From contig NZ_JBHSTI010000008.1 of the NCBI RefSeq assembly GCF_042660085.1, positions 1,117,836 through 1,149,835 of the forward strand: a stretch of 32,000 bases of DNA, written 5' to 3'. The notes below the pieces were generated by a model that had not been told where the DNA came from, ran no database searches, and was given only the letters and a program-made list of their open reading frames with translations. Below are positions 3,001-14,128 of this stretch, piece by piece (position 1 is the stretch's first letter; every line of letters starts with the position of its first letter). The position numbers and the translations under genes are program-made. The DNA comes from Longivirga aurantiaca. GTDB lineage: Bacteria > Actinomycetota > Actinomycetes > S36-B12 > CAIYMF01.

Positions 3001-3161
3001 ACCTCGACCGCGCACCTCACGGGTTCCCGCCGTCGCATCGGGGTCGCCCAGCCTGCTGGCGGCGGACGCCCGGACCGACGCGTGGGGCACCCCGGGCAAA
3101 TGCCCGATGCGGCCCCGAGCCGGCGTCCCTAGCGTCGCGGCGAGGTCGGGGAGGCTCAACG

Positions 3162-6100
3162 ATGATGGGACGAACAGTGCGGGGCAGTCGGGCACGGGGT
3201 CGTACGGCTGGATCACCTCTTCGTCGCGGCGTGGTGGGCGCCTGCGTCCTCGCCCTCACCGCGTCGTTGCTGTCGATGACAGGGGCAGGCAGCGCGGTGG
3301 GTGCCTCCCTTCCCGCGGCCGTGGTCGCACCTCAGGCCGTGGACGCCGCTGCTGCCGTCCCGGCCAACGTGACCGTCGGGCGAGGGCACGCCTGCGCCCT
3401 CATGGCGACCGGATACGTGTGGTGCTGGGGGCGCAACGACCGCGGCCAGCTCGGCTACCCGAGCGCGACGACCCCCGGCGAGCCGCGCCCGGTGCCCGGC
3501 ATCTCCACGGCGGTGCAGGTGGTCGCCGGCGATCTGCACACCTGCGCCCGGCTCACCGATGGCACGGTGAAGTGCTGGGGGGCCAACGGTTCGGGTCAGC
3601 TCGGCAACGCCTTGACCGTCGACAGCTCGGCGCCGGTCGCAGCGATTGGGCTCTCGGGGGTCACCGATCTCACGGCTGGACGGGCGCACACGTGTGCCGT
3701 CGCGAACGGCCTCGTCTCGTGCTGGGGATCGAACGGGTTCGGCCAGCTCGGGCTCGGCAGTGTGCGCGAAGCGCGCCTCGGCCTGACCCAGTTGGCGCAG
3801 TTCTATGCGATCGGCGTCGGTTCGAACGCCACGGACGACAACGGGGACCTCGTGCTCTCCGACGCAGCGACCAACGGCACGCTCGGCAGCGGATCGGTCG
3901 TCCGGTACGGCGACGACGGCGTGATCAAGTCGTTCTGGAGCATCCCCGGAAGCACTCTCGTAGGTGGCGTCGCAACCGCCCGCGACGGGTCGCGCACCTA
4001 CGTCGCCAGCGCGTTCCCGGGTCAGGCCGTGGTCTGGGTGCTGTCCGGTACGACGACGATCGAACGCACGTGGAGCCTGGTGAGCAGCGTCCCGGGCTGC
4101 GTGACTGCGAGCTGCAGCGTCGTCGGCCTGACCACCGACGCCAACGGCACGGTCTACGCCGCGGTTCAGCGGTTCGATGGGGCCGGCGTCTCTCGAGCCT
4201 CGTTCATCGCGTCGGCGTCGAAGGAGGGACTCCCGCTCGGCGTGACCGATGTGACCGCTCAGATGACCGTCATCTCCGACGTCACCTGGGTCCCGGGGGC
4301 GAACCGGGGGACGGTGTGGGTGCTCGGTACCAACCTGGTCAACCCGTCGCCCTTCAACCCGTCACCCACCCTGTCGTCCTTCGCCATCCCGGCCACCGCC
4401 GGCTCGTCCCTGGTCTTCCTCAACAAGAAGTCGGCGTACGCCGCGGTGGAGAGCTGCGTGCCCTCGGAGGATTACGTGCTGGCGGATCAGACGACGCTCA
4501 GCGGCACTGCCTTCTACCGCCACCGACACACGTACCCGCTCGTCAACAGCCTCCGCCTCGGAACCGCAGCGGACGGCCAGCTGCTGCTCTCGGCCGACTA
4601 CTCCCAGGGCCGGCGTCTGGAGAACACCTTCACGACCAACCCTGCGGCCCCGGTGGACATCCAGACCAACTACACCAACGAGACGCCTGCCGAGGTCGCA
4701 GACTGCGTGATGGTCGTGGACCCCGCGGCCTCGTCAACGCAGGCAGCCAGCGTGGTCTTCACGGTCCGGGGCAGCGCGGGCGATCTCACGGATCTCCGGA
4801 AGCCGTTGGACGCAACGGAGTCCGGTGATGGCGGCATCATCGTCTCCGACCCCTCGTACGCCGCTGCCAGCCCCGCGAGGCTCCAGCGCTTCAACGCGGT
4901 GGGCTCGGTCACTCAGTGGGGCCGGGTGCCGATCCGCACGATCCCGACGCCGCTGATGCCGTTGCAGGCCCTGCAGCCCGGGCAGGCTGCACCGACCATG
5001 AGCAGCGTGTTCGCGGGTGCGCATCACACGTGCGCTTCCGGCGTCGTGAACGGCCAGCCGACCACGCTGTGCTGGGGCAGCAGCTCCTCCGGCCAGACGG
5101 GATGGCCCGCCTCGGGCGCGTCGGCCCTGCGCTTCGGCCTCCCTCCGTCGGACACCGGCGACCAGAGCAGCTTCCCGATCGCCATGCCCGTGATCGGCGC
5201 CGGAGTGGGCAGCGGCGGTCTGGCGCACACGTGCATCGCCCAGAACGGGTCGCCTCGTCAGATGACCTGCTGGGGCGCCAACGACAGCGGCCAGACGCGG
5301 CTCAACACGGTCGAGGGCGACATCTGGCGGAACGGCGGCACTCCCACGACCGTGCCGGTGACCGAGCTGGACTCAGGCGACCTCACCACGTGCACGATCG
5401 AGTCCACCGACCTGAAGCGCGTGCAGTGCTACGGATCGGACGCTTACGGGCAGACCTCGGTGCGTCCGGGCGCGTGCCTGAACAACCTGGACTTCGTGCA
5501 GACGGCCGGCTGCCAGCAGGTCGGTGGAGCGATGCACATCTCCGCCGGGCCTACCACGACGTGCGCTGCGACCGCCACCGGCATCGTCTGCTGGGGCGAC
5601 AACGCGTGGGGGACTCTGGCGACGTATGGCTCGCCTCTGGGCGCCGTCGGCGTCCCGCTCGAGGTGCCGAGCACGTTCATCGTGAGCGCCCCCGCGACGC
5701 TCGATGGAAGCCTCGTGGCGCGGTTCGGCACCAACCTGGACGCGCTCGACGCCACGACCGACGTGGTGCTCCGCGTCAAGGGATCGGCGAGTGCCCTGGC
5801 AAGCACGAAGAGTGTGTCGGCCGACCGTCGGACAGTGAGCATCAAGCCGGCAGCGCCACTCGTCGCCGGGCAGCAGTACGAAGTCGCAGTCAACACCGGC
5901 AGCGCCACAGCGCTCACCTCCGGCGGCCTGCCGCTGACCCCGTCCGTGGTGAGTGCCAGAGCCGCGACGGCGCTGGGTGACACCAGCCCGGCCAATACGG
6001 CGGCCTGGCCAAAGGTCAGCAGCAGCACAGCCCTGGGGGGCTCGTACGTGACGGAGCGGACGGCAGGAGCATCCGCGAAGTTCGCGTTCACGGGCAGCTC

Positions 6101-14003: not shown

Positions 14004-14128
14004 GTTAGTGGACCCTTAGTGACTGCACATCCGGAACCCGGAGCCGCCTGTTCGATGGATCGGCGCGGACCGAGGAACGGAGCGCGCAACCCCATGTGGG
14101 GCCGAACGCGGGGAGGAGCTGGCCTGGT

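Follow-up and report, generated by a model that had tools for sequence, protein, structure and literature searches.

The stretch of DNA analyzed here, hereafter the window, covers 32,000 nucleotides with a G+C content of about 72%, and exact protein look-ups place it in Longivirga aurantiaca (Sporichthyales, Actinomycetota). Our subject is a pair of large forward-strand genes in the window and the regulator gene that converges on them. The first (3162-6680, +) is an open reading frame (ORF) of 1172 aa whose product carries RCC1 repeats, and which we refer to as the RCC1 partner; its start is probably the ATG at 3165, a start codon conserved in relatives. The second (6677-11392, +), called BIG in what follows, encodes 1571 aa from the ATG at 6677 (1575 aa if the ORF is counted from 6665), and its product is identical to WP_386765935.1 of L. 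aurantiaca, annotated as ‘hypothetical / Ig-like domain-containing’. The third (11487-14003, -) is an 838-aa ORF for a LAL-type regulator that matches the Pfam families AAA_22, AAA_16 and GerE. An earlier sequence-only reading of this DNA had described the same three ORFs, with products of 1172 and about 1570 aa for the pair, and our ORF calls agree with it. Its convergent 838-aa LAL protein holds good as an ORF and as a family assignment, but the probable start, a GTG near 13949, gives a shorter product of about 820 aa; the orthologue at the related locus L008 (homologous loci carry L numbers throughout) has 818 aa.

The two forward genes share the four nucleotides ATGA (6677-6680, +), the stop codon of the RCC1 partner overlapping the start codon of BIG. 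This overlap, by which the pair had been fused into an operon in the first reading, indicates translational coupling and recurs in identical form at L002-L004, L007 and L010. Between the convergent BIG and LAL genes lies a GC-rich hairpin (11400-11437) with a stem of about 15 bp; the folding energy over 76 nt is -46 kcal/mol (z = -2.9), a stability reached by just one of 200 shuffled sequences, so that the strong hairpin first picked out by inspection is real. A terminator consensus scan missed it because it has no T tail. At L008 the sequence in the same position is different and, by eye, again forms a GC stem, here of 12 bp; a stem that is kept despite the change in sequence argues for a working terminator, which the hairpin probably is, and for both converging genes. 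An Rfam search of the window returned zero matches.

In base composition the three genes differ little from their surroundings. The G+C content at third codon positions (GC3) is 0.88 for the RCC1 partner, 0.90 for BIG and 0.87 for the LAL gene, versus 0.90-0.95 for neighbouring genes and 0.95 for pta, and the richer use of A/T-ending codons that had been noted relative to neighbours such as pta is therefore real but small, amounting to 3-5 points of GC3. The low total G+C at 9-11 kb arises mostly at first codon positions, because the encoded proteins are rich in Ser, Thr, Asn and Gln.

The phylogenetic distribution of the pair is narrow and consistent. In a search of 5.8 billion protein clusters only 7 relatives resembled BIG over most of its length: three at 85-94% identity, three at 43-44% (Nocardioides taihuensis among them), and one at 32% from an Actinomycetota metagenome-assembled genome (MAG). 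An exhaustive profile search revealed a few further relatives at intermediate distance, and a scan of metagenomes contributed just two more loci. DNA upstream of the BIG gene could be read at L001, L002-L004, L005, L007, L008, L010, L011, L012 and on two JGI contigs, and at all of them the RCC1 partner, or at least its CE2_N-like C-terminus, is encoded immediately upstream. The adjacency, always in the same gene order, spans at least six divergent lineages at 28-44% identity, and the RCC1 partners are orthologues over their whole architecture at 28-34% identity. The locus is thus a conserved, translationally coupled two-gene operon, and a pairing first proposed from this one genome co-occurs well outside it. 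Searches of Pfam, NCBIfam and PDB sequences place the pair in no described system, as the sequence-only reading had supposed.

Other genes accompany the pair at individual loci. In the most divergent lineage, where the BIG homologue has about 31% identity (and 2055 aa in L005), a second RCC1 protein is encoded downstream of the BIG gene (L005 6843-9704; L013 about 3800-4900), with a CE2_N-like gene also present upstream of the BIG homologue in L005. On JGI contig 3300041967 a gene for 1561 aa with no Pfam match is convergent to the BIG homologue, and GDSL lipase and cNMP-binding genes are found there as well. In N. taihuensis (L001 4208-5743) a DUF4397 protein and a sortase are encoded just upstream of the pair, an arrangement that is not conserved at other loci.

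The RCC1-repeat identity of the first protein was judged by the curated Pfam cut-offs of PF00415, PF13540 and PF25390, which it exceeds by a wide margin (RCC1_2, 94.8 bits versus a cut-off of 22; RCC1, 65.9 bits versus 21.7; WD40_RLD, E = 1e-35), in agreement with the original assignment. Seven blades bearing a C-x-[WY]-G...G-[QT] motif can be recognized. Blades 1-3 (3354-3767, +) correspond to a Pfam stretch at residues 55-202 with CWG..GQLG motifs at residues 88, 138 and 187, and blades 4-7 (4998-5651, +) to a second Pfam stretch with motifs at residues 637, 703, 756 and 810; a 410-aa insert (3768-4997, +) separates the two sets. Since three blades precede the insert and four follow it, the two RCC1 stretches are one propeller and not two, and on this motif count they would close into a single, split 7-bladed structure. 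The proposal that the two proteins together present at least three propellers is accordingly not borne out, as the RCC1 stretches make only one. The insert is unclassified and kept in the orthologues, and by eye it contains NHL-like repeats; it had no match in a Pfam scan at E ≤ 5 or in PDB sequence and profile searches. Relatives of the propeller in the PDB, found by sequence, include UVR8, HERC2, RCC1 and BLIP-II (E = 7.5e-8), an inhibitor secreted by Streptomyces.

C-terminal to the propeller are a Big_5-like immunoglobulin (Ig) domain (5700-5909, +; Pfam Big_5, E = 1.1e-4, 23.4 bits against a cut-off of 23.6) that has weak CopC-like matches in the PDB, and two tandem CE2_N-like beta-sandwiches that resemble carbohydrate-binding modules (CBMs; 5979-6677, +; Pfam CE2_N, E = 3.3e-5, below the cut-off). 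The CE2_N family was also recorded for the upstream partner at four other loci, and CE2_N-like domains are conserved in A9. A PDB profile search with these C-terminal domains gave nothing significant, and a word-indexed protein search with the CBM-like tail returned only four fragments, its index being poor on Ser/Thr-rich sequences.

Both products carry predicted signal peptides, judged by eye from a basic N-terminus, a hydrophobic core and an AxA-like site. That of the RCC1 partner (residues 1-48; 3162-3305, +) has an Arg-rich N-region and the site AVGA/S, and the N. taihuensis orthologue appears to have a signal-like N-terminus too, provided that its start is moved upstream. Tat export of the partner was considered and rejected, as the Arg-Arg pair is not conserved among orthologues. 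The predicted signal peptide of BIG (residues 1-47; 6677-6817, +) is of the Sec type and is not a lipobox. Mature BIG contains 34 cysteines arranged as 17 closely spaced pairs, a pattern typical of exported, disulfide-bonded proteins, and we infer that both proteins leave the cell. Scans with Pfam, NCBIfam and sequence motifs found no LPXTG motif, lipobox, transporter domain or catalytic family in either protein, in line with the initial failure to recognize a catalytic motif, sortase signal or transporter. Several candidate identities were rejected on this and related grounds: sortase substrates (no LPXTG-type signal at either C-terminus), a lipoprotein (no lipobox), a thioester or alpha-2-macroglobulin protein (no CxEQ in either protein; Foldseek matches with TM of about 0.1) and the Tc-toxin component TcB (TcdB_toxin_midN at only E = 0.019, lying over an FG-GAP blade).

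The N-terminal half of BIG is a divergent FG-GAP-type propeller region with inserts (6854-8908, +). It falls just under the Pfam cut-off for FG-GAP_3 (26.3 versus 26.9 bits) and further under that for FG-GAP (17.4 versus 22.1 bits), so the ‘FG-GAP/VCBS-like’ label given to it earlier is only marginal. Three clear DxDGDG-type motifs are present (residues 172, 422 and 567; further degenerate ones were seen by eye), where a full propeller of this type has seven repeats with DxDxDG calcium loops, and distant relatives clear the FG-GAP_3 cut-off at E = 1e-14 to 1e-19. In those relatives the last FG-GAP blade runs directly into the motif QPLVILNAPP.HFD, of which the BIG counterpart is ...RPLMILRSPPVHFD, and by this continuity the N-terminal half of BIG is a divergent member of the same propeller. 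PDB sequence and profile searches with BIG, its N-terminal half included, gave no significant relative.

Beyond the propeller BIG consists of a core in two blocks followed by beta-sandwich domains. Core block A (residues 745-1005; 8909-9691, +; profile positions 1-260) is part of an unclassified domain and has the motifs PPVHFD, EYP.Y and GN.LSY. A small insert domain (9692-9988, +), specific to the actinobacterial subfamily and absent from the T9SS-type (type IX secretion) relatives described below, separates it from core block B (residues 1105-1260; 9989-10456, +; profile positions 360-520). There follow a CARDB-like beta-sandwich (10457-10846, +), which aligns to the CARDB domain of relatives and matches 2kut at E = 6e-13 in a profile comparison, and a C-terminal Ig-like region (10847-11389, +) that is confined to the close subfamily.

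A profile of the C-terminal part of BIG (residues 745-1571) showed that the protein belongs to a larger unclassified family of secreted proteins. Among 1.84 billion representative proteins it matched 340 clusters at E ≤ 1e-3 and 227 at E ≤ 1e-10, and beyond some 16 close relatives the matching clusters are mostly 1050-1100 aa long. What this superfamily shares with BIG are two blocks, residues 745-1005 and 1105-1390. Its members are built in the order N-terminal FG-GAP_3, core and CARDB, and in most of the representatives scanned these are followed by a type IX secretion system (T9SS) sorting tail. Neither Pfam nor NCBIfam offered a model for the core, whether in BIG or in 18 representatives, all superfamily members that were looked up are annotated as ‘hypothetical’, and the architecture (FG-GAP, CARDB, type IX secretion) was not described in anything that a literature search returned; a word-indexed protein search with the core alignment gave no match, this index handling Ser/Thr-rich sequences poorly. 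One T9SS-type member whose genomic context was read stands alone with no RCC1 gene, and the RCC1 partner therefore appears to be specific to the actinobacterial branch. That branch has no sorting tail, and in its place carries the extra C-terminal Ig-like region.

This exchange of a tail for a partner is what would be expected if the pair formed a non-lytic cell-surface complex, in which the CBM-like domains of the partner bind wall glycopolymers of the producer and tether BIG as an adhesin or ligand-capture propeller, the partner thus replacing the T9SS anchor of Bacteroidota-type relatives. Most scanned relatives do have a tail of type A and the one checked occurs alone, the anchorless actinobacterial subfamily always has the partner, and the extra Ig-like region of BIG sits exactly where the relatives have their tail. 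Integrin alpha chains, moreover, are laid out as an FG-GAP propeller followed by Ig-like domains, the superfamily profile matches integrin alphaV in its propeller part, and neither protein has catalytic motifs. Set against these points, the CE2_N-like assignment lies under the Pfam cut-off and no SLH, LysM or LPXTG element was found, an interaction between the partner and BIG is only putative, and the conservation of the amphipathic, Gly-tipped hairpins described below is left unexplained. We consider a surface complex of this kind possible, if on the whole doubtful.

The same propeller profile also matches a secreted esterase (9oee, E = 1e-16) and the rhamnogalacturonan lyases 4cag, YesW and YesX of polysaccharide lyase family 11 (PL11), which raises the prospect of an extracellular polymer-degrading pair, BIG being a new lyase or hydrolase, likewise with an FG-GAP propeller as its scaffold, and the RCC1 partner supplying the CBMs. 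T9SS cargo is often made up of glycan-degrading enzymes, several polar residues of the core are invariant (H766, D768, D787, D892, E905, N957 and D1208), and a dockerin was found on one distant relative of the partner's CBM-like domain. The PL11 match is, however, obtained only with a profile dominated by T9SS relatives; a BIG-family profile does not match YesW, YesX or 4cag, and as the N-terminal region of BIG itself has no PDB match, the similarity is one of generic FG-GAP blades in distant relatives only. With no CAZy-type or other catalytic family in the 18 representatives and no sugar transporter or catabolic genes conserved near the pair, we think an enzymatic role unlikely.

To model the core we used AlphaFold2 (AF2) on residues 745-1571 with a 71-sequence alignment, which gave an all-beta structure (predicted local distance difference test score, pLDDT, 75; predicted template modelling score 0.76); an earlier model from 7 sequences (pLDDT 41) was not used. 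The CARDB-like and terminal Ig-like domains are predicted confidently (pLDDT 75-97 overall, 75-94 for the former and above 90 over the last 130 residues of the latter), as is the small actinobacterial insert (pLDDT 77-85). Within the core the model places two very long hairpins, the strands of the first spanning positions 59-97 and 103-144 of the fragment. Hairpin 1 (residues 803-888; 9083-9340, +) includes, in this order, W824, an alternating strand, a variable Gly-rich or charged tip, a second alternating strand and Y865, and hairpin 2 (residues 1120-1170; 10034-10186, +) has the same plan with W1126, a Gly-rich tip and Y1158. Column statistics over the 71 sequences show for both a strict alternation of hydrophobic and polar positions, polar faces rich in Ser, Thr and Gly, Gly-rich tips of variable length, and the aromatic brackets W824...Y865 and W1126...Y1158. 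Such conserved features are as expected of membrane-inserting hairpins, and the core profile found PDB sequence matches only among pore-forming toxins (Cry23Aa1 over hairpin 2, E = 0.03; Mpf2Ba1 over hairpin 1, E = 2.2).

Taken together, the locus is best explained as a small, phyletically rare and vertically retained operon for two exported, disulfide-rich, all-beta multidomain proteins. Our favoured, and tentative, account of their function is a secreted two-subunit extracellular complex composed of a binding subunit and an effector with membrane-inserting hairpins. The stop/start overlap would ensure that the two proteins are made in fixed proportion, and outside the cell they would probably act together. 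The role of binding subunit would fall to the RCC1 partner, with its split 7-bladed propeller, inserted domain, Ig domain and pair of CBM-like domains, and secreted RCC1-like propellers are known as protein binders; BIG, with its divergent FG-GAP propeller, unclassified core, CARDB-like domain and Ig-like region, would be the effector. The propellers and CBM-like domains would first bind a surface ligand, whereupon the core hairpins might insert into the target membrane as they do in beta-pore-forming toxins. That most of the distant BIG relatives scanned carry type IX tails is in keeping with export. Of the roles suggested at the outset, that of a ligand-binding or toxin-like effector remains the most plausible.

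A number of points tell against this account and must be weighed with it. The hairpins are the least confident parts of the AF2 model (pLDDT 44-63), their alternating hydrophobicity also fits ordinary beta-sandwich packing, and the toxin matches are statistically weak and fall in compositionally biased, Ser/Thr-rich stretches. No aerolysin or ETX-MTX2 family model in Pfam matched BIG or 18 relatives even at E ≤ 5, and aerolysin-type toxins are much smaller proteins with one hairpin. At the loci compared, no immunity gene or other toxin-associated neighbour is conserved, and N. taihuensis has no LAL gene beside its pair. Finally, the tail of most scanned T9SS-type relatives is of type A, which often signifies attachment to the cell surface and not release. 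A bolder form of the same idea holds that the core is a new beta-pore-forming family with two hairpins per subunit, widespread as T9SS cargo, probably in Bacteroidota, of which the rare actinobacterial branch is a two-component toxin that needs its coupled RCC1-propeller/CBM targeting subunit; this we regard as improbable, but the significance of the locus would rise sharply if the core did prove to be a new pore-forming module.

As to regulation, the LAL protein is a well-supported member of its family (AAA_22, 33.9 bits versus a cut-off of 27; GerE, 55.7 bits versus 23.5; Walker A motif GPVGVGKS; 820-838 aa). Of the relatives, L007 and L008, both close (78-90% nucleotide identity), are the only ones with its gene beside the pair, and its inclusion in the original module therefore stands for the Longivirga-like lineage but does not extend to N. 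taihuensis. One JGI contig, with a BIG homologue of 43% identity, has an LAL-like gene split in two (347 aa plus a 486-aa GerE protein) upstream. In L007 (14816-17300) the LAL gene is recovered by tblastn in two pieces that meet near 16385, and is called there as 514 aa, which points to a frameshift or an assembly error.

The palindrome GGGCAAATGCCC (3094-3105, +; 5-2-5), a candidate operator, precedes the RCC1-partner start by about 60-70 nt. All four sequences compared (the window, L007, L008 and L002) have it unchanged, although the DNA around it and further upstream diverges, and no second exact copy lies within the window. A four-way upstream alignment also shows conservation of a -10-like TAGCGT (3130-3135, +) and of a ribosome-binding site GGGGAGG (3148-3154, +). 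A sigma-70 consensus scan gave nothing, as expected for a high-GC actinobacterial host. The palindrome lies just upstream of the expected -35 element, a position that would suit an activator site, and in the Longivirga lineage the adjacent LAL protein probably switches the operon on through it, a link drawn from gene position only.

Comparison with L007, a MAG of about 90% nucleotide identity, bears on whether the genes are an acquired island. BLASTN aligned the two in three collinear blocks: a Usp block (window 574-1576, L007 5259-6261), a block of the RCC1, BIG, LAL and 107-aa genes (window 3025-14466, L007 6347-17797) and a pta block (window 29707-31882, L007 17868-20043). Because Usp, the three-gene block and pta are contiguous in L007, the genome-specific DNA lies in the flanks, at 1577-3024 and 14467-29706. 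The block and the 107-aa gene are also retained in L008 at 78% nucleotide identity. The 107-aa gene (14129-14452, -) is syntenic in L007 and L008 and encodes a protein with no Pfam match that by eye resembles a PNPOx-like split barrel.

The sequence-only reading had seen copies of a decayed gene on both sides of the block and had taken them to delimit an acquired unit. The left-hand copy is indeed decayed, being a 3' remnant of the 107-aa gene at 2908-2998, but the right-hand copy at 14129-14452 is that gene itself as an intact, uninterrupted ORF. Another remnant, at 18029-18130, has the first 14 codons fused to the last 18. Both remnants lie within the flank insertions, each beside a copy of a 62-nt intergenic repeat. 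This repeat has the palindromic core GGTTACCCGGGTAAC, no Rfam match and at least 13 copies in the window, often in tandem (1585-1770, 2843-2904, 14513-14574, 17902-18025, 21534-21595, 26283-26406, 29585-29708 and 31899-32000), and its copies edge both genome-specific insertions. Since these are the segments missing from L007, the repeat may mediate insertion or recombination.

Recent acquisition of the three-gene block, bounded by duplicated remnants of a disrupted gene, could draw on an 89-nt stretch of the left remnant (2910-2998) that matches the 3' end of the 107-aa gene (14131-14219) at 81% identity, on the GC3 deficit of the block, on the very patchy phyletic distribution of the family and on the different genes found upstream of the pair in L002. 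The left remnant nevertheless resembles a third copy, at 17937-18092 (88%), more closely than it does the right-hand gene, and with the contiguity in L007, the retention of the block in L008 and the intact right-hand gene this makes recent acquisition very improbable and largely refutes it. The position of the operon, with the LAL gene adjoining, is stable in the Longivirga lineage; the patchiness across orders still allows an old horizontal transfer. The island interpretation is thereby corrected, the mobile parts being the flanks bounded by the 62-nt repeat.

The flank insertions themselves contain genes with no counterpart at these positions in L007. On the left is a gene for 313 aa with no Pfam match (1782-2723, -). 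The right-hand insertion, about 15 kb that L007 lacks between its 107-aa gene and pta, has genes for an EamA/cNMP-binding protein, an aminotransferase, a GATase-like protein, an M20 peptidase, several products with no Pfam match and a very hydrophobic, polytopic membrane protein of 1507 aa (21754-26277, +; no Pfam match) that coincides with an AT skew of -0.48. At 26400-28060 the G+C content falls to 0.68-0.69 and no ORF passed a GC3 filter of >0.85.

If the two proteins do form a two-subunit effector, they would bring a new RCC1-propeller/FG-GAP-propeller architecture to what bacteria secrete as binding and toxin-like proteins, and would give a first functional handle on a domain without a database model that is common to several hundred metagenomic clusters. 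Even a mundane function such as adhesion or polymer binding would leave a small and clean experimental system of two genes, one candidate regulator and one candidate operator.

In comparison with known systems, what we describe is an undescribed variant of known secreted-protein parts plus one unmodelled domain, with nothing known to be new in kind. The LAL protein shares with MalT and PikD the Walker NTPase, the long helical middle, the C-terminal LuxR helix-turn-helix and a length of about 820 aa; known LALs usually control sugar regulons or antibiotic clusters, whereas here the neighbour is a two-gene operon for secreted proteins. BLIP-II of Streptomyces exfoliatus is, like the RCC1 partner, an actinobacterial 7-bladed RCC1-type propeller with an export signal, and it works by protein binding. 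It is however a bare 270-aa propeller, whereas the partner is split by the 410-aa insert and has in addition an Ig domain, two CBM-like domains and a coupled second gene.

Integrin alpha chains and bacterial integrin-like FG-GAP proteins resemble BIG in having a propeller followed by a run of beta-sandwiches and in their calcium-type DxDGDG loops, but BIG, itself below the Pfam threshold, has no thigh or calf homology, and in place of a beta-subunit homologue there is a partner with an RCC1 propeller. The likeness to the aerolysin and ETX-MTX2 toxins, including the binary Cry23Aa1/Cry37Aa1, consists of long Ser/Thr-rich strands, an amphipathic hairpin with a flexible tip, fused ligand-binding domains and a two-protein arrangement, and among PDB sequences it is Cry23Aa1 that the core matches best; BIG differs in having two hairpins instead of one and in being 5-6 times larger, and the match is a weak one.

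A further parallel is with the FG-GAP/core/CARDB superfamily known from metagenomes, most of whose scanned members have a T9SS tail. Its members share with BIG the succession of FG-GAP propeller, two-block core and CARDB-like domain as well as the motifs PP.HFD, WEYPVY-like, GN.LSY and PDxAF.LP (E = 1e-15 to 1e-35). BIG, at 1571 aa, departs from these proteins of about 1050-1100 aa through a larger and divergent propeller and a 100-aa core insert, is free of the Por_Secre_tail and TIGR04183 tail models in Pfam and NCBIfam scans, always follows an RCC1 partner, and belongs to an actinobacterial host. In most of the relatives scanned this core comes with a T9SS tail, whereas in the Actinomycetota it is accompanied by a dedicated partner protein, which offers a natural comparison.

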